Below, piece after piece: positions 1-12,005 of a DNA stretch of 35,275 bases (position 1 is the first letter of the stretch; the number at the start of each line of letters is the position of its first letter). This stretch comes from Bacteroidales bacterium. Lineage in GTDB: Bacteria; Bacteroidota; Bacteroidia; Bacteroidales; UBA12077. The notes under the pieces are model-generated. The model had not been told where the DNA came from. It saw nothing but the letters and a program-made list of their open reading frames with translations, and made no database searches. Location of the stretch: NCBI GenBank assembly GCA_028282585.1, contig JANQHR010000013.1:1-35275 (forward strand). Reading direction: 5' to 3'. Made by a program: the position numbers and the translations under genes.

Positions 1-95
1 GTATAAATCCAAAAGATTTTTATAAAAAAGTAGCTGTAAAACTTAATCTACAGCTTCTCAATTTTTATAGTTTACTTACTTCTGAAATTGCCTAA
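1..95 (+). CDS. 3' end of a gene entering the window (probable preceding cassette ORF)
   Basis: Frame open from position 3 (INPKDFYKKVAVKLNLQLLNFYSLLTSEIA) to TAA 93-95, immediately followed by an attC-like site. Confidence 0.5.
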   Translation, partial: INPKDFYKKVAVKLNLQLLNFYSLLTSEIA

Positions 96-100
96 ATAAA

Positions 101-162
101 CCGTCTGACAGCAAAAGTGCTGTAACTCCCAAAAGATAGGGTAAACAAGGGCCGTTAGGCAT
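101..162 (+). repeat. attC-like site 0 (short form)
   Basis: Degenerate left core GTCTGAC 103-109; right arm GTAAACAAGGGCC-GTTAGGC (core 154-160) resembles GTAAACAAAGACC-GTTATAA of site 4. Confidence 0.65.
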
Positions 163-196
163 AGTAAGCTCGCTGGCGCAACATTTAGACAATTTT

Positions 197-228
197 ATTG
201 CTAATATTTTAGGTTTACTTTATCTTTG
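197..228 (+). promoter_or_regulatory. Bacteroidota sigma-A promoter of the TA cassette
   Basis: ATTG 197-200, 20-nt spacer, TATCTTTG 221-228 (consensus TTTG-N19-21-TAnnTTTG). Confidence 0.6.
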
Positions 229-246
229 AAAAAAATAGGTTGAATT

Positions 247-492
247 ATGAATATAGCAGAATTGAAATTGAAATTTTTTAGGCAAATAGACGGTCTTGAC
301 AAAGACAAATTAGAAGAAGCTTATGGAGTTTTATTAAACTATATTAATAGCAAGGACGATTTAGATGAATGGAGCAACTTGACTGCTGAACAACAAAAAG
401 GAATTATTGATAGCATTGAGCAACTTGAGAATAATCAAGGAACTTCTCATAATGATGTAATAAAGAAATACAAGAATAAATACAATGCGTAG
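247..492 (+). CDS. Antitoxin (addiction module component-like)
   Basis: 81 aa, acidic, W..LT.EQ..GI..S..Q....G..H..V pattern; overlaps the downstream RelE/ParE gene by 8 bp. Confidence 0.8.
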   Translation: MNIAELKLKFFRQIDGLDKDKLEEAYGVLLNYINSKDDLDEWSNLTAEQQKGIIDSIEQLENNQGTSHNDVIKKYKNKYNA

Positions 493-784
493 AGAAATAA
501 TTTGGTCTCCTTTAGCTGAAGAAGACTTAGGAAATATTCTTGAATATCTTGCTGAAAATTGGAATCAAAAAGTAATAATTCGCTTACTCAATAAGATTGA
601 CCTTGTAACTAACCAGATAGCTAAAGTTCCAAATCAATATCCAACTATTAACAAAAAACTACAAGTGAGAAAGTGTGTAGTGACAAAACAGAATACTCTT
701 TTCTATCGTGAAATTGAAAAACAAATTGAAATATTAAGATTGTACGACACGAGACAAGATCCTAAAAAATTAAAATTTCTATAA
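485..784 (+). CDS. RelE/ParE family toxin
   Basis: 99 aa with IIWSPLAEEDL..I.EYL start and LFYR....IEILRLYDTRQDP end, typical of the RelE/ParE fold. Confidence 0.9.
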   Translation: MRREIIWSPLAEEDLGNILEYLAENWNQKVIIRLLNKIDLVTNQIAKVPNQYPTINKKLQVRKCVVTKQNTLFYREIEKQIEILRLYDTRQDPKKLKFL

Positions 785-791
785 GCTTACA

Positions 792-962
792 ATGCCTAAC
801 ATTGGGTGCTAATTCCATGCGGGGTTTTGTGGTTTGCTGGCTAAGTTTTATCTTAGTGTAGTTGTTCAGTGGTGGATAACAAAACAAGGCGGAACTAAGC
901 GCAGCGACCTCATGAGCCGCAGGTGATTAAGCTCGCACGAAACTTAACGCGGGTTATAAGGT
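792..962 (+). repeat. attC-like site 1 (long form)
   Basis: ATGCCTAAC 792-800 to GTTATAA 953-959; shares CATGCGGGG, TATCTTAGT, CAAGG..GGAACTAAGCG, CTC.TGAGC with sites 4 and/or 5. Confidence 0.85.
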
Positions 963-986
963 AATCAAACTTTTTAGAAAAACTTA

Positions 987-1415
987 ATGGACAAAATTAT
1001 TTATCAAAGTAAAAGATCATGGATAGGAATTTCTGTTTTAATTTCCTTCCTTTTTTTGACAGTTATTATATTACTTGTTGGGCATAATGAGAAAGCAAAA
1101 CTTTTTTTGATAGTTTATCCTTTTCTGACAGTTTTTTTATTAATACTTTATTTATTTCATCATAAATTACTATCAAGAGTTAAAATTTATAAAGATAGGA
1201 TAGAGTTTAAATTTATTCGATTACTCTTTTGGATAAAGACAGACAGTTTCGAATTAAATAAAATTCATCAAATTAATGTCACTGGGAAATTCTTCTGGAA
1301 AATTAGAGTAATAATAAAAGGGACTGGTGAAATGCAAATTAATCAGTATATCGAAATGTATGGTTTTAGACTGGTAGACTTAATAAAAAGCTTAAGGAAA
1401 TTAATGTTTTTGTAA
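987..1415 (+). CDS. Hypothetical membrane protein (2 TM plus small beta-rich domain), cassette
   Basis: 142-aa ORF with two N-terminal hydrophobic helices, bounded by attC-like sites. Confidence 0.7.
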   Translation: MDKIIYQSKRSWIGISVLISFLFLTVIILLVGHNEKAKLFLIVYPFLTVFLLILYLFHHKLLSRVKIYKDRIEFKFIRLLFWIKTDSFELNKIHQINVTGKFFWKIRVIIKGTGEMQINQYIEMYGFRLVDLIKSLRKLMFL

Positions 1416-1470
1416 GTTATCCAAGGAAAGGGAAAATAATTAATAGACTAGTAAAATAAAAAGTTTGACA

Positions 1471-1604
1471 ACCTATAACAGCGGTTCAGAAAAAATGCGA
1501 GGTGCAGTAGTATTCTGACAATTATTGTTATCTTTAGCTTTTGTTAACGGGGGATAATGAAACAAGGCGGCAAACCCGCACTTTTACTAACCGCGGTTGT
1601 GCGT
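1471..1604 (+). repeat. attC-like site 2
   Basis: ACCTATAAC-A-GCGGTT..AAAA.TGCG pairs with CGCA.TTTT..AACCGC-G-GTTGTGC (core 1596-1602). Confidence 0.85.
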
Positions 1605-1629
1605 AATTTTATTTTTACAATATTATTCT

Positions 1630-2145
1630 ATGAGAAAAATTGCAACAATAACTTTTTTATTTTTTTATTCCCTTATAGCTTTTGGACAGTCTGACAATTC
1701 AGAAGAATCAATTTTACAAGCTGAATTCTATGTTTCAACATCGCAAATCAAAGAGCTTGCTGATAGTTATGGAATTGGGATTGGTATAGATTATAAAATG
1801 AATTTATTTTTAGTTGGGACAGAAGTATTTGCTTTCACCAAAGCAATTGGTGGTGGTTACGAATCTGACCATTATTTAAATATTGACTTCTTAGGTGGAA
1901 TTCATAAAAAAATAAAAAAGTTCGACATTAGTGTAGCTACTGGTATTGGTTTGAGCTTTAGAGACGAAGGAGAATATCATCTTTTTTTACAAGAAGAAAG
2001 CTATACCAAATTAGCATTACCTGTGAGACTGAAAGCTAATTATTTACTAAGTGAAAAGTTTTTAATTGGCTTTGGGGCTTATTCAAGTTTGACATCAAAA
2101 GTTGATATTTATAGCTTTTTCGGTTCGATAGGTTATCAATTTTGA
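1630..2145 (+). CDS. Small outer-membrane beta-barrel protein, cassette
   Basis: Signal peptide from ATG 1630 (MRKIATITFLFFYSLIAFG), alternating beta strands, C-terminal SIGYQF; the TTG at 1597 lies within the attC-like core. Confidence 0.75.
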   Translation: MRKIATITFLFFYSLIAFGQSDNSEESILQAEFYVSTSQIKELADSYGIGIGIDYKMNLFLVGTEVFAFTKAIGGGYESDHYLNIDFLGGIHKKIKKFDISVATGIGLSFRDEGEYHLFLQEESYTKLALPVRLKANYLLSEKFLIGFGAYSSLTSKVDIYSFFGSIGYQF

Positions 2146-2154
2146 AATAAAACA

Positions 2155-2265
2155 ACGCACAACATCGGGTCAAACTAAATGCGGGTGTATGTTGTTTTGC
2201 TGACATAATAGTATATTCGCGTTGGTTCGGTTTCGGTTGACAATGAATCACGGGAATCCCACGCA
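2155..2265 (+). repeat. attC-like site 3, right arm interrupted
   Basis: ACGCACAAC 2155-2163, ATGCGGG, TATATTCGCGTTGGTTC (shared with site 7); homology stops after CCCACGCA at ~2265. Confidence 0.75.
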
Positions 2266-2690
2266 AGTCTCATAAATGTAAGCCTTTATGCCTAATGCTT
2301 TCAGGACATTTTTAACAGAGTTAACCAGAAAACATTTAGCAAAGTACTTATAAAAGCTGACAAGGCTGGAAATTTATTTTTAAAGGCTTGGAAAGCTTTT
2401 ATAAGTTAGTGAATTTTACGAGTTTATTCAAGCCTTTCTAGAAAGCGTTAAGGGACATCAGCGGATTGGCGTAAAAATCAAGGGAAGCGAGCGTGAAGAA
2501 AATTTTGGTGCCATCGGCACGATCAAAGTTTTTAGGGAGCAACCCGTAGATTTTCTTGCCAGGTCGGTGCAGTCCTAGCATTTTCTTTACTGCTTTCTTT
2601 TTGGCGATGCAAAAGAAAGCAGGCTTATTTAGTTGTCCAGCATTTCGGGATTAAGATTTATAATACAAATCTTTGTAATAGATATTGAAG
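2266..2690. mobile_element. Non-coding, highly structured insertion (MITE-like) within the attC-like site
   Basis: No credible ORF; long nested hairpin ~2451-2577 and 12-bp stem CTGCTTTCTTTT/AAAAGAAAGCAG 2590-2622; boundaries approximate. Confidence 0.4.
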
Positions 2691-2760
2691 GTAAACAAAA
2701 CGCTTGGGGCTCTCTTACCCTTGATTAAAGCAGTAGGTAAACTACCCCTAATCAACAGAA

Positions 2761-2937
2761 TGCCCAATACATAACGTTCACACGCCATACGGGTGCTTGG
2801 TGGTTTTGTAGCTTTATCATATCTTAGTAAAAGTTTAAACGATAGATAATTCAGCAAGGTGGGAACTAAGCGAAGCGTTCTCTTGAGCGTTAGCGAAAAA
2901 ATTCCGTACACTCAAGTAAACAAAGACCGTTATAAAC
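2761..2937 (+). repeat. attC-like site 4
   Basis: Colinear homology to site 1 (CCATACGGG, TATCTTAGT, CAAGGTGGGAACTAAGCGAAGCG, CTCTTGAGC); right core GTTATAA 2929-2935; left core degenerate (GCCCAAT). Confidence 0.8.
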
Positions 2938-2993
2938 AATTGCTGGAAATATAAGTACAAATATTAATTAATCAATAAATAATATATTTTAAA

Positions 2994-4055
2994 ATGAAAA
3001 AAGGAGTATTAATCTTTTTATTATTAGTCTCAACTTATGGATTAAAAGCACAAACACAAATTAATTCTTTGGGTTCATATGTTTGGAATTCTAACGATGA
3101 GCCCAAAACATTCAATTATAAGTTGCAATTATCTTTTGTGAATAGCAATAAAGGATTCCCTTCCTACGGAACTGTGCTTGCAGGCGGTGGTTATTCTACT
3201 AATCAAGATGGTGGAGCATTTCAATTATATTTTCCATATAATGATGAATATGGTGGAATTGCTCCAAAAATTAGATTAGGAAAATTCAATAATCAAGGTT
3301 GGAGTAACTGGGAAACATTTTATACATCAGCTAATGCAAATAAATCATCAATTGATTGGAATGTAAAAAAATTACATGTTTCTGATAGAATTGGAATTGG
3401 AACTAGTAATCCATTCTCTAAATTACATGTTATTAACGATAATTTTACAGTAACCAGTCAAAATGGTATCTTGGTTCAAGGGACTACAATTGGAAATGGT
3501 AATTACACGGCGGCAATTGGTTTTGGGTATGCAGGAAGTATGGATGCTGCTATTACAGGTATTCAAGAAGGATCAGATAATAATTCAATGGGTTTAGCTT
3601 TTTTCACTCATCCTTCCGCAGTATCAACCGATCCAAAGATTGAAGCAATGAGAATAACAAAAAATGGCAATGTTGGCATAGGAACTACTTCAACAGGAAC
3701 TCATAAACTTGCTGTTGACGGTACAATTGGAGCAAGAGAAATTATTGTTGAAACAGGAACATGGTCAGACTTTGTATTTGATGACAATTATAAATTGAAA
3801 GATTTAGAAGAAGTTGAAAATTTCATTGAAGAGAATAATCACTTACCTGATATTCCATCCGAAAAAGAAGTTTTAGAGAATGGAATTCAAGTTGGTGAAA
3901 TGAATGCAAAACTATTACAGAAGATTGAAGAATTGACTCTTTATATGATTGAGCAGAATAAGAAAACTGAAAAGCTAATCGAGAAAGTTGAAACACTTGA
4001 ATCTAAGAATAAAGAATTAGAAGAAAAAATTCTAAAATTGGAAACAACCAAATAA
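2994..4055 (+). CDS. Secreted tail-fibre-like protein with a C-terminal S74/intramolecular-chaperone-like coiled-coil region, cassette
   Basis: Signal peptide; IGIGT/GNVGIGT repeats; KLAVDGTIGAREI..WSDFVF..Y.L..LEEVENFI..N.HLPDIPS..LLQKIEELTLY module common in Bacteroidota. Confidence 0.75.
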   Translation: MKKGVLIFLLLVSTYGLKAQTQINSLGSYVWNSNDEPKTFNYKLQLSFVNSNKGFPSYGTVLAGGGYSTNQDGGAFQLYFPYNDEYGGIAPKIRLGKFNNQGWSNWETFYTSANANKSSIDWNVKKLHVSDRIGIGTSNPFSKLHVINDNFTVTSQNGILVQGTTIGNGNYTAAIGFGYAGSMDAAITGIQEGSDNNSMGLAFFTHPSAVSTDPKIEAMRITKNGNVGIGTTSTGTHKLAVDGTIGAREIIVETGTWSDFVFDDNYKLKDLEEVENFIEENNHLPDIPSEKEVLENGIQVGEMNAKLLQKIEELTLYMIEQNKKTEKLIEKVETLESKNKELEEKILKLETTK

Positions 4056-4061
4056 GTAACG

Positions 4062-4203
4062 GCTTACAACACTCGATCAAACTACATGCGGGGTTTTGCT
4101 AGCTTACAGACTAAATATTATCTTAGTAAAATTAAATAGCAGGCGACTGATAAGTAAGGCGTGGGAAGCCTTCAGGTAGCTTACCTGCGGGGAGTTAGTA
4201 AGC
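4062..4203 (+). repeat. attC-like site 5
   Basis: GCTTACAAC 4062-4070, CATGCGGGGTTTTG, TATCTTAGT, right core GTTAGTA 4194-4200. Confidence 0.8.
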
Positions 4204-4245
4204 ATTTTTATACTTGAACAAACTAAGAACCTTAATTTGATAAAT

Positions 4246-4755
4246 ATGAATAAAAAATTATTTTTAACTCTAGTTATCTTAATAATAATTAAACTAACAT
4301 ACTCCTTAAGCATTAAAGAAAGGAATGTTCTGAATGTCTTTATCAACTCTAATGATGAACTTTTGGTGAAAGGTGAACCTTTACATATTGACAGTCTTTG
4401 TGATCGTGTTAAAGTATTTATTTTAAATCCGGAAAATGACTATGTATATTCTGAAAAAAGAGAAAGTGAAATAAAACACCTGGGAATAGTTATGGTTTCT
4501 AAAGGGATAGTTTCTGTGCAATGTGAAAGAAATACTACATACGAGTTTTACATTAAAGTCCAGAATGAAATTGAGAAAGCTTATAACGAACTGAGAAATG
4601 AGTATTCTATTGAAAAATTTGGAAAAGAATATAAATTAATTGCAAAAAAATATAAAAAAGCTATTAACGAATACTTTCCTAAAATAATTTCTGAAGCTGA
4701 ACCAAATTATGCGTGGAAAAATGGAAAACTAGTTAAAAATTATTATACTTATTAA
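4246..4755 (+). CDS. Bacteroidota ExbD-like periplasmic domain protein, cassette
   Basis: ERNVLNVFINSNDELLV, IVSVQCERNTTYEFYIKVQNEI..AYNELRN and PKIISEAEP match Bacteroidota ExbD periplasmic domains; ATG 4246 preferred to TTG 4237. Confidence 0.75.
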   Translation: MNKKLFLTLVILIIIKLTYSLSIKERNVLNVFINSNDELLVKGEPLHIDSLCDRVKVFILNPENDYVYSEKRESEIKHLGIVMVSKGIVSVQCERNTTYEFYIKVQNEIEKAYNELRNEYSIEKFGKEYKLIAKKYKKAINEYFPKIISEAEPNYAWKNGKLVKNYYTY

Positions 4756-4761
4756 AAACGT

Positions 4762-4818
4762 GCACTAACAGCAAGTCATAAAGCAAGCCTTTAGATTAGT
4801 AATCTAAAGGTTATGCGT
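4762..4818 (+). repeat. attC-like site 6 (short form)
   Basis: GCACTAAC 4762-4769; perfect 11-bp inverted repeat 4788-4810; right core GTTATGC 4810-4816. Confidence 0.75.
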
Positions 4819-4908
4819 AATCGTGTTTTTAGGGCTACATTGTAAATGTTTATCCGAAATTTATAAAACAAATCTTATAAAAAAATTGTAATTTTATAGA
4901 TACAATAA

Positions 4909-4926
4909 ACAAATTTATAAATTTGT
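4909..4926. promoter_or_regulatory. 18-bp palindrome, candidate autoregulatory operator
   Basis: ACAAATTTA|TAAATTTGT 3 bp before the ATG of an HTH protein; contains TAAATTTG (-7-like). Confidence 0.4.
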
Positions 4927-4929
4927 GAC

Positions 4930-6057
4930 ATGAGTACTGAAGTAAATATAAATGCAAACATCTTAACTTGGGCAATAGCGCGAGCAGGGTATAAATTGCA
5001 TGAATTTACGACGAAAGTCCCTAAGGTACAGGACTGGATAGATGGTAAAAAGAAGCCAACTGTTAAGCAATTAGAAGCATTTTCTAGAAAAGTTTATTTA
5101 CCTTTTGGATACTTATTTCTTTCTGAACCACCAAAAGAAGATTTACCAATTCCTTTTTTCCGAACAATACAATCTGATGATGAAAAAGTTAGTATTAATG
5201 TTTATGATACTGTCTTAATCATGCAACAAAGACAAGAATGGTTACGAGAATATCTTCGTGATAATGGCTTTGAACCATTATCTTTCGTGGGGAAATTTAG
5301 CAACAGTCAAAATGTTAATGAAATAGTTGAAGATATAAGGAATACTTTGGGGTTAAAAGAAAATTGGGCAAGTAATTTTAAAACTTGGCGTGAAGCTTTA
5401 GAACATCTTACTGTTAAGATTGAAGATTCTGGAATTGTAATGGTTTTTAATGGTATAGTTGAAAACAACACTCATAGACCCATTAGTGTCGAAGAATGTC
5501 GTGGCTTTGTTATGACTGATGAATTGGCTCCGCTTATGTTTATAAATAATGCTGATGGAAAAGCAGCTCAAATGTTTACAATAGTTCATGAGTTAGCGCA
5601 TATTTGGACTGGAAATAGTGCAGGCTTTGATTTTAGGAAACTTGAACCGGCTAATGACCCTACTGAAATACTTTGTGATAAGGTTGCAGCTGAATTCTTA
5701 GTTCCAAAAACTGAATTTAGCAAAGTTTGGGATAGAAATCCACAAATTAGTTATGTAGCAAAATATTTTAAGGCCAGTGAGATAGTTATTGCAAGAAGAG
5801 CATTAGATACTAATAAAATAAGTAAAAGTGATTTTTATACTTTTTATGAAGATTATATAAGTCGTATTAATAAACAAAAAGCCAAGAAAAAACCAGGTGG
5901 AGACTTTTATGCAACTACAAAAAAAAGGCTAAGCATGACATTTGCAGCACACGTATATAATGCTGTAAAATCTGAAAAATTACTATATAGAGACGCATAT
6001 AAATTAACCAGTTTGAAAGGTGATACTTTTCAAACATTTTTCACTAAACACTTTTAA
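4930..6057 (+). CDS. XRE-HTH plus ImmA/IrrE family metallopeptidase (putative antitoxin)
   Basis: N-terminal HTH (VQDWIDGKKKPTVKQLEAFS), RGF, FTIVHELAHIW (HEXXH), E..CD.VAAEFLVP. Confidence 0.9.
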   Translation: MSTEVNINANILTWAIARAGYKLHEFTTKVPKVQDWIDGKKKPTVKQLEAFSRKVYLPFGYLFLSEPPKEDLPIPFFRTIQSDDEKVSINVYDTVLIMQQRQEWLREYLRDNGFEPLSFVGKFSNSQNVNEIVEDIRNTLGLKENWASNFKTWREALEHLTVKIEDSGIVMVFNGIVENNTHRPISVEECRGFVMTDELAPLMFINNADGKAAQMFTIVHELAHIWTGNSAGFDFRKLEPANDPTEILCDKVAAEFLVPKTEFSKVWDRNPQISYVAKYFKASEIVIARRALDTNKISKSDFYTFYEDYISRINKQKAKKKPGGDFYATTKKRLSMTFAAHVYNAVKSEKLLYRDAYKLTSLKGDTFQTFFTKHF

Positions 6058-6062
6058 TTTGT

Positions 6063-6563
6063 ATGAGTGTTTACGTTGTTGATACTAACTTTTTTATCCA
6101 AGCTCATAGAGCTCACTATCCTTTAGATGTAGTGTCTAGCTTTTGGAACAAGGTTAAAGAATTAGCTGAAAACAAATCTATCATCAGTATTGACAAGGTT
6201 AAACATGAAATATACAGAAATAATGACGCATTAAAGCAGTGGTGTGAAGAAAATCTACCAGATGATTTTTTCAAAGACACTTCAAACATAACAGATGCGT
6301 ATAGTCAAGTTGTTTCTTGGGCGACAGCAAGAAGTAATCATTTTTTACCTAATGCTATTAATGAATTCTTGGATTCTGAAGAAGCAGATGCATTCATTGT
6401 AGCTTATGTGTTATCTGAAAATCATGATAGAGTTGTGGTAACTCAAGAATTAAGTGAGCCAAAGAGTAAGAAGAAAATTAAAATTCCAGATGTTTGCATT
6501 GGCTTGAATGTAAATTATGTCAATGTAATGACTATGTTTAGAGAACTTAGTGAAACATTTTAA
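6063..6563 (+). CDS. DUF4411 family PIN-like nuclease (putative toxin)
   Basis: YVVDTNFFIQA, ADAFIVAY, VVTQE, KIKIPDVC motifs; 5 bp after the IrrE gene. Confidence 0.85.
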   Translation: MSVYVVDTNFFIQAHRAHYPLDVVSSFWNKVKELAENKSIISIDKVKHEIYRNNDALKQWCEENLPDDFFKDTSNITDAYSQVVSWATARSNHFLPNAINEFLDSEEADAFIVAYVLSENHDRVVVTQELSEPKSKKKIKIPDVCIGLNVNYVNVMTMFRELSETF

Positions 6564-6574
6564 AAAACACGTCA

Positions 6575-6704
6575 ACGCATAACACGCGTTGCTCAAACAC
6601 CATTTAGGTTTGCAGTCAAAGTATTATATTCGCGTTGGTTCTGTCCGAGTTATTATTAACCGGATCGAAACTCCCGCACACTAACTAATGCAGGACCGTT
6701 ACTA
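6575..6704 (+). repeat. attC-like site 7
   Basis: ACGCATAAC 6575-6583, TATATTCGCGTTGGTTC, CCCGCAC, GACC-GTTACTA (core 6698-6704). Confidence 0.8.
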
Positions 6705-6722
6705 ACTATAAAACAATAAACA

Positions 6723-7409
6723 ATGATTAAATTTAGGATTTTTTTCCTGGCATTAGGAATATTCACCTCATGTTCAATCCGGTTTACTTCAGGTGAAAGT
6801 GTTTTAAATGGCAAAGTCAAATCTTGTTTATTGTTAAAATACGAGGTCAATAAAATTTCCGGTAAAGTTGAAAAAGGAAAATTGCTGGATTATGGACACC
6901 AAAAATGGAGCTTTGACAAAAAAGGAAACTATACTATCTATGAATACCTCGATTCTGAACAGAATATATTGGAAAAAACAATCCCTAAATACATTAACGG
7001 AAAAATATTAGAAGAAATAGTTTACAATAGGCAAAGTGAGATTGAATCTCGATCGAAATATACATATATTTCCAAAAGTGAAATTGAATTTGAAAGGTTA
7101 AATAAACATGGATTAATCCTTTTTAAGGGAACAATATTTAAAAACAAAAATAAGGTTATTCATCAAGAATTTACAGCATATCGAAATAACGAAATCAAAG
7201 AAAGAATGAATTGCTTTTACAATTACGACCATAATGATAATCTAATTATGTTTAAGCAAACAGAGAGTAATGGTGAAATAATCTCATTAAAAAAGTATCT
7301 GTACCTTGAATTTGATGATAAAAAGAATTGGACCAAAAGACTAGTCACTTATCCTGAATACTCTGATAAACCTAGACATATAGAAATTCGTAAAATTGAA
7401 TATTACTAG
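6723..7409 (+). CDS. Lipoprotein with YD-repeat-like beta hairpins, cassette
   Basis: Lipobox FTSC; FDKKGN, YNYDHNDN, EFDDKKNWTKR and terminal RKIEYY. Confidence 0.75.
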   Translation: MIKFRIFFLALGIFTSCSIRFTSGESVLNGKVKSCLLLKYEVNKISGKVEKGKLLDYGHQKWSFDKKGNYTIYEYLDSEQNILEKTIPKYINGKILEEIVYNRQSEIESRSKYTYISKSEIEFERLNKHGLILFKGTIFKNKNKVIHQEFTAYRNNEIKERMNCFYNYDHNDNLIMFKQTESNGEIISLKKYLYLEFDDKKNWTKRLVTYPEYSDKPRHIEIRKIEYY

Positions 7410-7414
7410 TGTAC

Positions 7415-7457
7415 TGCTGCTAACACGTGGTGTCCCGCTAGTGCCGGCATGTTGTCA
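7415..7457 (+). repeat. Degenerate terminal attC-like site 8
   Basis: TGCTGCTAAC 7415-7424 just after the stop codon; possible right core GTTGTCA 7451-7457. Confidence 0.45.
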
Positions 7458-7496
7458 GAGCTTTCCCAATCTGTTCTGAAAATATACTAAAAGTAT

Positions 7497-7522
7497 TGCC
7501 TGTCATAAAAACAGGCATTTTT
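7497..7522 (+). terminator. Intrinsic terminator at the end of the array
   Basis: TGCCTGT-cataaaa-ACAGGCA followed by a T run. Confidence 0.6.
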
Positions 7523-7681
7523 TATAATATATCTGCTAAACATTCGTTAATTTCAATTATAGGATTTTAACACTAATTCTATTTTACCTGTCCGCCGGTT
7601 TATCTGCCAAAGGCATGACAAGCGGGTTAACCTAACTATCTTAAGGAACATAATATTTTTTGAAAAGGCTTGTTTGTTTAA

Positions 7682-7855
7682 GAAGCAGACATGCAATGAT
7701 ACGAAGCAGAGGAAAATGTTTTGGAAGCAGAACAACATAAGCTTGAAGCAGCCCATGAACAGTGAGAAGCAATAGAAGAAGAACGAGAAGCAACGCATCA
7801 GGAACAGGAAGCAGTAAAAAATGAATGAGAAGCAAAACAAAATAAATGAGAAGCA
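7682..7855. repeat. Phased array of 9 GAAGCA cores at an exact 21-bp period with variable 15-bp spacers
   Basis: GAAGCA starts at 7682, 7703, 7724, 7745, 7766, 7787, 7808, 7829, 7850; all three + frames contain stops. Confidence 0.9.
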
Positions 7856-7903
7856 ATAAAAAAATTACTTTACAATTAAATAAATGTTTAACTAAAATTA
7901 AAA

Positions 7904-8569
7904 ATGATTATGGCAACACGCCCAAAGATCTCAGATGTAGCAACTTTAGAAAAGTATAGAGTTGCTTTAGAAAATGTAGAAGCGCAAAGTGAAATCGCAA
8001 CTATTATGGCAGAGTTCGGATACGATGCTGCTTTAATAGAAGAAGGCAAAAATTTACTCATCAAAACTCGTCAAGCTTACGACCTGAATGTGAAAGAAGA
8101 TGATGAAACCTCCCAGGCATATAGTAATTTCTCAGAGAAACGCGATTCACTGTCTGATACATATACACTTCATAGGAAGAAAGCAAAAGTAGTATTCAGA
8201 AAAGATCAACAAATAATGGAGCGTTTAGCCCTCATAGGTTCACTTCCAACGGCATATATAAACTGGCTCGAAACAGTTAAGAAATTTTATACTGAAGTGC
8301 TTGTTGACACTGAACTGCAAAATAAACTAAGTCGTTTGAAAATTTCGGTAGAAGATTTAAATGCAACCAATACCTTGATCAGCGAATTAGAATCTGCAAG
8401 ATCCGGGTATTTGAGAGAAAAGGGTGAATCTCAGGATGCAACAATCGCAAAAAATTCTGCATTCGCCCTGCTGGATGACTGGATGAGTGAATTTTATGCA
8501 GTCGCTCGCATTGCACTTGAAGATAATATCCAATTACTTGAAGCTTTAGGAGTAATTGTACGAAACTAA
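7904..8569 (+). CDS. Hypothetical all-helical protein with an apparent internal duplication
   Basis: 221 aa, no signal peptide; the halves share patterns (KEDDETSQA / REKGESQDA); ends QLLEALGVIVRN. Confidence 0.8.
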   Translation: MIMATRPKISDVATLEKYRVALENVEAQSEIATIMAEFGYDAALIEEGKNLLIKTRQAYDLNVKEDDETSQAYSNFSEKRDSLSDTYTLHRKKAKVVFRKDQQIMERLALIGSLPTAYINWLETVKKFYTEVLVDTELQNKLSRLKISVEDLNATNTLISELESARSGYLREKGESQDATIAKNSAFALLDDWMSEFYAVARIALEDNIQLLEALGVIVRN

Positions 8570-8852: not shown

Positions 8853-10415
8853 CTAAGTATTATTTACTTTAAAGAAGGACACCAAATCTTTTAGTTGATT
8901 TGCTTGACTAGTCATTTCTTCAGCACTAGTTGCTAACTCTTCGCTTGCAGCAGCATTTTGTTGCGTAACTCCATTCAATTGCTGTATGGAGTTATTAATA
9001 GCATCAACCCCATTATTTTGCTCTTGACTTGATGAAGAAATTTCTTGAATTAGTTTTGCTGTTTTTACAACTTCAGGTAATATATTGTCCATGTTTGTTC
9101 CTGCCGTCACTGCCAATTTATGGCTATTTTTAGTAAGTCCTATAATCTCTTCTGCCGCCAATTTACTTCTCTCTGCAAGTTTGCGCACTTCGGCAGCTAC
9201 AACTGCAAAACCTTTACCATACTCTCCTGCCCTCGCAGATTCAACAGCAGCGTTAAGCGCCAATATATTAGTTTGAAAAGAAATATCATTGATAATACTA
9301 ATTTTATCGGATATTTGTTTATTTGCATTTACAGATTCTTGCGACTGATTGCTAACTTCTTGAATACCTTCTCTAGCAACCAAAGCAATTTTCTCAGTTT
9401 CTGACGAGTTTTCAGCATTTTTCTGGATATTTAAGGCCATTTCTTCCATAGTTGAAGAAACTTCTTCTACCGATGACGCTTGTTCATTAGCACTTTGTGA
9501 GATATTTTGAGATGTATTACTAACTTGTTGGCTAGCTGAAGCAATACTGCTTATTCCAATATGTATACTTTCAATAATATTAGTCAATTTAGCACTCATA
9601 TTTATTAAAGATTTCGCAAGACGACCAACATCATCTCTAGATTCTACAAATAATTTAAATGTTAAATCTCCCTTAGTTATTTTTCTTGCTAATTGTTGTA
9701 TCGTTGTTAAATCCTTTGTAGTTCTTCCAACAATAATTATTACAGGTACAATAATTGTAATAAAACCCATTACCCCTATTGTTATTCCCTTATTTATAAA
9801 ATTATTTGCCAACTCCTCCTGAATAGTACTGCCACTATAAACATATAATAAAGATTTAAATGATAATAAAAATAGAATAATTACACCTACACTTGCTATT
9901 GTTGTACACATAAAAAGTTTTGTTTTAAGTGTAAACACTTTTGCTGTATCTGTTAAAGGAACTGATGACGTCCAAGCTTCAAGGAAGAAAATCATTTTTA
10001 AGAAAAAGGGAAGAGTAAAAATAAAAATTATCGGAATTCCAAATGACCAACTTAATAAGTATGTACTACGATTAATATCTAAGCCAATAAGCCCAGTGTT
10101 CGGTCCTACTAAACAGTATATTGTTATTCCAATAATATATAAAGAAATAATATTTAAAACCAATCTTTGAACTTCTGCATAATCCTTATTAAGTGATGCT
10201 TTTTTAATTGCTTGAAGCTTTTTACTTAATAGCATTACCATTAGAGTTATATATAATGGAACATAAATAAGTAAACCCGGATTAGAAAGTATTTTTAGAA
10301 TTTGCTCAGAATTAAATAATTCATTAAACCAAATAATAATAATCCAAAATACTGGTGGTAAAACAAAACCTCCAATAAACCACAATATAATTTTTTGTCT
10401 AACCTCCTTTTTCAT
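8853..10415 (-). CDS. Methyl-accepting chemotaxis protein (multi-TM sensor, HAMP, signalling domain)
   Basis: [37 protein letters not shown] signature; HAMP segment GDLT...SRDDVGRLA. Confidence 0.95.
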
Positions 10416-11710: not shown

Positions 11711-11849
11711 AATATGAACTCTTCACTTTTACAAACATTTTGGTAAGACAAGCTTACTAAAAAGCTTGTAATCTTCTTGTCCCGTTAAACATCAGGAGCT
11801 TTTGGGAAGGATGAGCACTGACCTGTGCCTTTGTCATATTGACTCACAA

Positions 11850-11968
11850 AACATGCGGAGTTTTTGACGTTTGATCATAAAATACTATATTCGTATTGGT
11901 TCTATTCGGGTGATGATGAAACAGTGCGTGCCTCCCAATAGCTATCCGACTTGCACTAAAGTTAAAGT
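11850..11968 (+). repeat. Isolated degenerate copy of the attC-like repeat
   Basis: CATGCGGAGTTTTTG...TATATTCGTATTGGTTCT...GGTGATGATGAAACA aligns with sites 3 and 7. Confidence 0.65.
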
Positions 11969-12005
11969 AGTACCGATATCTGAAAATAAATCAATTAAAC
12001 TTCAT

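Follow-up and report, generated by a model that had tools for sequence, protein, structure and literature searches.

A conserved promoter-like module within the long attC-type recombination sites of a Bacteroidales gene-cassette array

In the standard picture of integrons, co-oriented gene cassettes are promoterless and are expressed from one platform promoter (Pc), and most cassettes of large arrays are silent reserves (PMC11014356, PMC8876359). Internal promoters carried by some cassettes (e.g. cmlA, qac, qnrVC and toxin-antitoxin cassettes) free them from the position effect (PMC8876359). In the superintegrons of Vibrionaceae, gene-less cassettes act as promoters for the cassettes downstream of them (PMC11014356), group IIC-attC introns carry outward promoters and activate the downstream cassette (PMC3001079), and in Vibrio sp. 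DAT722 a sigma-70-type promoter bridges the attC between cassettes 20 and 21 (PMC2945992). Very few integrons were found in Bacteroidetes by integron surveys (PMC9024848), and two further papers only name the phylum (PMC8618304, PMC9668308). Here we describe a cassette array at the start of a 35,275-nt stretch of DNA (hereafter the window) from a Bacteroidales bacterium of lineage UBA12077 (GenBank assembly GCA_028282585.1, contig JANQHR010000013.1, positions 1 to 35,275 of the forward strand). Within the long attC-type sites of this array is a real, widely conserved promoter-like module. Judged from sequence comparison, a built-in promoter for the next cassette is the best reading of its conserved box, and we give that reading about an even chance of being right.

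The array resembled the described systems in part. In class 1 integrons and in Vibrio cholerae alike, the classical Pc is supplied by the platform and not by the expressed cassette; it is a single promoter located in or at intI/attI, and cassettes farther from it are expressed less, whereas here the module was repeated in every long attC and, in contrast to classical Pc integrons, the recombinase gene was co-oriented with the array. Internal promoters occupy the 5′ untranslated region of the very cassette that they express, and two cassettes of the window were of this kind (boxes at 221–228 and 4918–4925), whereas the box described here was inside the attC of the preceding cassette and was family-wide. 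The DAT722 promoter likewise overlaps an attC and drives the next cassette, but it concerns a single junction and is not presented in that report as a conserved part of an attC family. Promoter cassettes of Vibrionaceae and group IIC-attC introns also add promoters at scattered places in arrays, but as elements separate from the recombination site itself, being whole cassettes or introns inserted in an attC. No description of an attC family with a conserved promoter came up in a literature search that covered papers outside subscription-only journals.

Sedentary chromosomal integrons share with this array attC sites of 120–170 nt that are uniform within a lineage, and large co-oriented arrays. 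The centre of the Vibrio repeats is simply a long imperfect stem. Compared with such long attC families, the sites described here had a one-sided unpaired bulge with conserved words followed by a terminal hairpin, and the recombinase was XerA-like, without the IntI domain.

The window was one entire contig of a 4.89-Mb genome (31.9% G+C). From position 1 to ~7460 it held co-oriented small genes with repeats between them, each repeat starting in ..YAAC and ending in GTTR... Among the array genes, Pfam named a ParE-like toxin and a Peptidase_M78/DUF4411 pair, and the other matches were weak. The long repeats (~130–170 nt) are real attC-type recombination sites. Inverted cores (..YAAC on the left, GTTR.. 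on the right) were visible in the window sites. A nhmmer profile built from seven long repeats was used to search the contigs of the genome and gave 32 copies on 12 contigs, of which 4 of the 32 aligned had a variant core. A covariance model built from 25 copies was then used for relatives, and of 36 other genomes in the genus, 35 contained the family. At the level of the order, 13 of 151 genomes matched, including the source genome and one relative of its genus; 11 other families were represented. A complete genome of the genus (G008) held 62 copies, all on one strand, over ~100 kb (C1:1,401,730–1,504,044).

To describe conservation, 162 unique full-length copies from the source genome and from retrieved stretches of its relatives were aligned, and parsimony changes were counted per column on a maximum-likelihood tree of these copies. 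The cores TAAC and GTTA were near-invariant, with 0–1 changes at AAC and 0–4 at GTT. The family divided into a few subfamilies containing near-identical copies. A secondary structure was drawn by hand from one copy and then scored on the alignment: 80.6% of cells were paired, vs 68.6% in shuffles and 30–42% when the partners were slid. The L-box helix was paired in 97.8% of cells and showed double changes at 5 of its 6 pairs; this covariation supported an outer stem and a terminal hairpin. RNAalifold run on 25 copies recovered only 6 pairs because the stems carry indels. Bulged bases were present in the attC stems, and no Rfam family matched the sites. In the G008 array, the 6 nt following a right core were compared with the 6 nt that precede the next left core. 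They were complementary at 5 or more positions in 24 of 53 adjacent pairs, and in 1.7% of the non-adjacent ones; this complementarity is the signature of circular cassettes opened at G/TT. Junctions 0/1, 2/3 and 6/7 of the window matched in the same way as read, the first bases of the cassette being compared with its own left core.

The bulge of the folded site was ~36 nt long, lay on the coding-strand side only, between the outer stem and the terminal hairpin, and faced ~10 nt on the opposite side. It contained an upstream TTTG and the box, the last G of which was the first base of the terminal hairpin. RNAalifold found no consensus pair within the bulge in the 25 copies, and for the bulge on its own the mean folding energy was −1.1 kcal/mol in a sample of 60 of the 162 copies. 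Pairing of the bulge with the 3′ side of the site was tried and rejected (58.7% paired vs 56.3% in shuffles). As the box lay to the left of the crossover point, it was part of the preceding cassette and not of the 5′ untranslated part of the next one.

All long sites of the window were on the + strand. Site 1 (794–959; left core GCCTAAC, 794–800; right core GTTATAA, 953–959) contained TTTG at 826–829 and the box TATCTTAG at 849–856, with the next ATG at 987. Site 2 (1474–1602; TATAAC, 1474–1479; GTTGTGC, 1596–1602) contained TATCTTTA at 1529–1536, lacked YTTG 19–21 nt upstream of it, and was followed by an ATG at 1630. Site 3 (2157–2290) had the left core GCACAAC (2157–2163), the box TATATTCG (2212–2219) and a decayed right core (CTTTATG, 2284–2290), after which came a gene-less element. 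Site 4 (2769–2935; ACATAAC, 2769–2775; GTTATAA, 2929–2935; next ATG 2994) contained CTTG at 2796–2799 and TATCTTAG at 2820–2827, and site 5 (4064–4200; TTACAAC, 4064–4070; GTTAGTA, 4194–4200; next ATG 4246) contained TTTG at 4095–4098 and TATCTTAG at 4119–4126. In site 7 (6577–6704; GCATAAC, 6577–6583; GTTACTA, 6698–6704; next ATG 6723) the box was TATATTCG (6625–6632) and TTTG was present at a spacer of 12 only. An outlying long site (11830–11985), called a remnant in a preliminary description made from the window alone, carried TTTG at 11863–11866 and TATATTCG at 11886–11893, and was followed by a metallo-beta-lactamase-fold gene (ATG 12006). That description had reported seven such octamers at a nearly fixed distance from the left core and a YTTG upstream of four of them; all were found where it placed them. 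The octamer began 49 nt from the C of the left core in sites 1, 3 and 5, 50 nt in site 2, 45 nt in site 4 and 42 nt in site 7, in agreement with the values of that description to within 1 nt. The spacers of the four copies with an upstream YTTG were 19–20 nt; sites 2, 3 and 7 lacked YTTG at that spacing, and sites 3 and 7 had it at a spacer of 12.

The loose octamer alone carried little weight, TANNTTHR matching the window 328 times vs 378 ± 20 in shuffles. Its fixed register is due to the sites being paralogues and is expected of such repeats, so that the question was whether the box was kept more than its surroundings. The weight of the octamers came from conservation over the whole family. 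A profile of the loop over many copies, which the preliminary description had proposed as a check, showed that TAnnTT was kept in 157 of 162 unique copies within 3 nt of its aligned place. The box had the form TAnnTTnG in 116 of the 162 and TAnnTTTA in 31, and TTG stood 18–21 nt upstream of it in 108. The six specified positions of the box underwent 5, 7, 4, 5, 12 and 7 changes (mean 6.7), against 17.2 in the other columns of the bulge (Mann-Whitney p = 9e-4). Among the 66 gapped windows of 8 columns across the central region they changed least, whereas the second “n” was free (15 changes). TATnTT was maintained across subfamilies with differing flanks. Of 19 unique copies from the other families of the order, at least 13 kept TATCTT or TATTTT in place; these boxes mostly ended in ..TTTA, ..TTAG or ..TTCA, and two copies had lost part of the bulge.

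The primary sigma factor of Bacteroidota recognizes a −33 TTTG and a −7 TAnnTTTG (PMC7366714), the −7 box spanning −12 to −5 (PMC9723704). The source genome demonstrably uses this grammar upstream of its genes: on the sense strand, TAnnTTTG matched 103, 138 and 134 times in the 10-nt bins from −50 to −21 of 2701 long open reading frames (ORFs), over a background of ~20–35 per bin, and the antisense strand was flat. TTG peaked 19–21 nt upstream of these boxes, weakly (4–6% per spacer). Enrichment at promoter positions genome-wide was 4.8 for ..TTTG, 2.5 for ..TTTA, 2.1 for ..TTAG, 2.0 for ..TTCG and 1.0 for ..TTCA, and other endings of the box were at background (0.85–1.65). A scan for sigma-70-type promoters showed no enrichment (43 matches vs 36 ± 6.8 expected), and the sigma-70 model is inapplicable to this phylum. 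Four genes for RpoD-like sigma factors were present (contigs C135, C124, C1 and C172) in short frames of 287–308 aa, each scoring 242–257 bits with the RpoD C-terminal model. With several primary-like paralogues, the variants of the box could be read differently by different sigma factors.

Most downstream cassettes did not supply a box of their own. At 108 of 148 sites, a forward ORF (≥50 aa) started within 400 nt of the right core (median gap 38 nt). At the 79 sites where the start was within 80 nt, an own exact box was present in only 2. With longer gaps, 17 of 29 cassettes had their own box (18 matches vs 5.3 expected). Over positions 1–8000 of the window, the + strand held two terminator-like sites, one of them (6011–6035) inside a gene and the other (7497–7527) at the array end, and none between cassettes.

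The two toxin-antitoxin-like cassettes of the window had been thought, in the preliminary description, to have their own promoters and to follow two short sites lacking the loop. Both indeed carried exact boxes near their start codons on the + strand: TATCTTTG at 221–228, 19 nt upstream of ATG 247 of an antitoxin-like/ParE pair (247–784; ParE_toxin Pfam match, E = 9e-09), and TAAATTTG at 4918–4925, 5 nt upstream of ATG 4930 of the Peptidase_M78/DUF4411 pair (4930–6563). The sites before them had been misread as two of a short kind. Site 0 (93–160, + strand; right core GTTAGGC, 154–160) was the 3′ half of a long attC only, without bulge or box, and its positions 93–157 were near-identical in local alignment to full subfamily copies on contigs C55 and C169; its 5′ half had been replaced or had decayed. 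Site 6 (4763–4816, + strand) was a hybrid of a long-family 5′ arm and an unrelated 9-bp hairpin (4788–4810) adjoining the right core GTTATGC (4810–4816), again without bulge or box.

Read as a promoter, the long attC would be a recombination hairpin with a promoter module inserted. Folded as single-stranded DNA, it forms a terminal hairpin and an outer stem, the latter made of the right and left cores, the L boxes and an inner helix rich in GC, with the one-sided bulge between stem and hairpin. In the bulge, TTTG, a spacer of 19–20 nt and TAnnTT(T/A/C)(G/A) follow the −33/−7 grammar of the primary sigma factor of Bacteroidota, aimed at the next cassette. In duplex array DNA, transcription would start ~5 nt past the box, within the 5′ arm of the terminal hairpin; for site 1 the start is predicted near 861, taking the box to span −12 to −5 (PMC9723704). 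The 3′ half of the site would become the leader of the mRNA (~86–162 nt), ahead of an otherwise promoterless cassette gene. Since nearly the whole site belongs to the upstream cassette, each inserted cassette would bring a promoter for the one behind it, and the strength of expression would be set by the box variant of the upstream neighbour, i.e. expression would depend on the identity of that cassette. We infer transcription, its start point and its neighbour-dependent strength from the anatomy of the sites, their conservation, the use of the motif by the host and the missing cassette-borne boxes, all of which were observed directly. Six features are explained by a promoter: the strand and orientation of the box, a constraint that differs by position, its location in an unpaired region, the TTG spacing and the lack of other promoters.

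A wider proposal is tentative, and we hold it to be clearly less probable than the promoter itself: that the attC evolved into a combined recombination and expression module, with a promoter in the bulge, a start at the foot of the hairpin and no terminators between cassettes, so that arrays of 60 or more cassettes are transcribed throughout without a Pc gradient. The mRNA would then begin with the terminal hairpin as a 5′ stem-loop cap, and shuffling of cassettes would retune expression via neighbourhood and not distance, through the variants ..TTTG, ..TTTA, ..TTAG, ..TTCG and ..TTCA. On folding of the site the box would be exposed as single-stranded non-template DNA, and sigma binding and site folding could affect each other.

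A number of results weigh against a promoter for the next cassette, beginning with the quality of the box. The exact consensus TAnnTTTG was found in 0 of 7 window copies and, at its aligned place, in 44 of 162 family copies. All seven window boxes had one mismatch, at position 7 or 8 (..TTAG in three, ..TTCG in three and ..TTTA in one), and were at best weak by the statistics of the genome itself. Position 7 was the least conserved of the specified positions (12 changes), the first “n” was kept as T (7 changes) beyond what the promoter model needs, and TTTG at a spacer of 20 was moderately conserved only (17, 11, 8 and 29 changes). An upstream CTAAG can pair with the 3′ half of the TATCTTAG box (CTTAG) in the subfamily that has this box, and 35% of the sampled bulges (60 of 162 copies) folded with z < −1.64. 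The exact box did not differ in frequency between sites followed by a forward ORF and the rest (21 of 94 vs 16 of 54, p = 0.33); for this count the first TAnnTT within a span of 30 nt served as the box and was sometimes a neighbouring word. Nor was the frequency of own boxes raised behind weaker upstream boxes (4 of 24, 9 of 60 and 6 of 24). The power of both comparisons was low, and the site is in any case part of the upstream cassette.

Some of these results would also be expected if the box had no sequence-specific function of its own, being inherited in a homogeneous attC family and kept by site copying together with a constraint on folding or strand choice, with any transcription a by-product. 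Chromosomal integron arrays are known for very uniform attC sites, and the few subfamilies of near-identical copies seen here fit this, as do the small hairpin that the box joins in one subfamily, the consensus being present in only 27% of copies, and the absence from both comparisons of compensation or relaxation tied to the downstream neighbour. With relatedness taken into account by the tree, however, changes at the box positions were 2.6 times fewer than elsewhere in the bulge, TATnTT was kept across subfamilies with differing flanks and in other families of the order, and the bulge had no supported pairing partner. We regard inheritance without function as unlikely, though far from negligible.

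The central region held a second conserved element (CGG..GA, AA, GG; e.g. window 868–895), which covers the terminal hairpin from its loop through its 3′ arm and extends just past it. It was as constrained as the box or more (0–9 changes), and pairing alone did not account for it. This is a further point against the promoter: with another, non-promoter element conserved near the box, sequence-specific constraint here need not mean a promoter. As a genome-wide operator, CGG..GA..AAAC was tried and rejected; of its 22 matches 9 were in attC sites, and the 13 outside seemed unrelated.

Both the words of the bulge and the CGG..GA element might instead be binding sites for the recombination machinery, either the N-terminal domain of the recombinase or a host factor, their likeness to a promoter being incidental. 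The recombinase gene (contig C169:2004–3134, − strand; 376 residues) was co-oriented with the cassettes. Its product is XerA-like and not a classical integron integrase: it scored 221 bits with the XerA model NF040815 (cut-off 220) and its best solved relative was XerA (5hxy), while TIGR02249 gave 214 bits, below the cut-off of 265, in two pieces, with ~17 residues vs 60 model positions. It is without the IntI-specific additional domain, and its N-terminal part (~95 residues) matched no Pfam family and gave no informative look-alike (scores 0.83–0.84). With this architecture, it may recognize sites differently from classical IntI. The machinery would also explain why a non-promoter element of the same central region is at least as conserved as the box, why that element recurs in gene-less cassettes of a relative with a decayed box, and why the core kept across distant families is TATCTT and not the full consensus. 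Yet the constraint fits a promoter box position by position (positions 1, 2, 5, 6 and 8 low, and one “n” free), the orientation, strand and TTG spacing agree with host promoters, and binding by the N-terminal part remains putative. Such binding sites seem improbable to us, to about the same degree as inheritance without function.

In G008 an ortholog of the recombinase (72.7% identity) was likewise co-oriented with its array, ~2 kb before the first site. The word AACTA/GTTA followed the recombinase gene in both genomes and may be an attI-like core; read by eye, the sequence shared by both genomes contained no exact TAnnTTTG just upstream of it. Relatives of the recombinase in named genomes were eight distant matches in mixed metagenome bins and were useless for context.

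The length of the predicted leader is also unfavourable to a promoter for the next cassette. The distance from the end of the box to the next ATG was ~105 nt (median) in the family and ~86–162 nt in the window, and genome-wide the motif peaked 21–50 nt from the ATG, to which the site boxes do not fit. The predicted leaders would thus be three to five times the usual length in this genome. Median leaders are 24–32 nt in two Bacteroidota with mapped starts (PMC7366714, PMC9723704), and 13.5% of leaders exceed 100 nt in B. thetaiotaomicron (PMC7366714). Among public sequencing runs, those containing window 1–8000 were three DNA runs of one study labelled coral metagenome, and no RNA run was listed, which also does not favour this explanation.

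A long leader and a start at the foot of the terminal hairpin would suit a promoter with another purpose, either production of a small RNA or short leader out of the 3′ half of the site, or transcription or sigma binding that aids site folding for recombination, the box belonging to non-template DNA that is single-stranded once the site folds. This is pure conjecture, and without a terminator-like site within the attC sites, transcripts should continue into the next gene; we consider it the least probable of the explanations. Overall, the preliminary proposal that each site promotes its downstream neighbour gained from the attC anatomy, the location in the bulge, the host grammar, the constraint on the box and the few own boxes of downstream genes, and lost from the lack of any exact box among the seven, the weak variants and the long leaders.

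The gene-less element that the site 3 box would transcribe was a cassette-like unit of 475 nt (2296–2770, + strand). By blastn, copies 93–95% identical were on contigs C85, C36, C169 (two), C55 and C138, with a partial copy (79%) on C155, so that the genome held at least 7, some cut by contig ends. It was the first unit after the attI-like core on C169, had folding z values of −2.9 (+ strand) and −4.0 (− strand), and matched nothing in Rfam. The G008 array contained another gene-less cassette of ~337 nt (e.g. L068:4960–5297) in 11 copies of 73–100% identity, which was not present in the source genome and had no Rfam match; it held copies of the central AACGG..GA..AAAC..GGC element with a decayed box.

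Four copies of the long site (window 11830–11985 and one each on contigs C77, C34 and C64) had variant cores, ..TCATA.. on the left and ..GATATC.. on the right, replacing ..TAAC/GTTA... In these the base after the right core again matched the next left core, and the variant cores suggest a second crossover specificity inside the attC family. The array of the window ended in site 8, a short attC-like site read from the sequence (7419–7458, + strand; left core ..GCTAAC, right core GTTGTCA), and the terminator-like hairpin with a T-run (7497–7527, + strand). Just outside the array was a gene for a methyl-accepting chemotaxis protein (MCPsignal and HAMP; 8853–10415, − strand); chemotaxis genes are unusual in Bacteroidota.

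The attC family was present in 35 of 36 genomes of one genus in a phylum for which surveys list very few integrons, and the 62-site array of G008 is very large for such a phylum. If the long sites do promote their neighbours, such an array would be a row of expressed genes in which cassette order matters in a different way, and would show a gene-capture system adapting to a phylum with unusual promoters.

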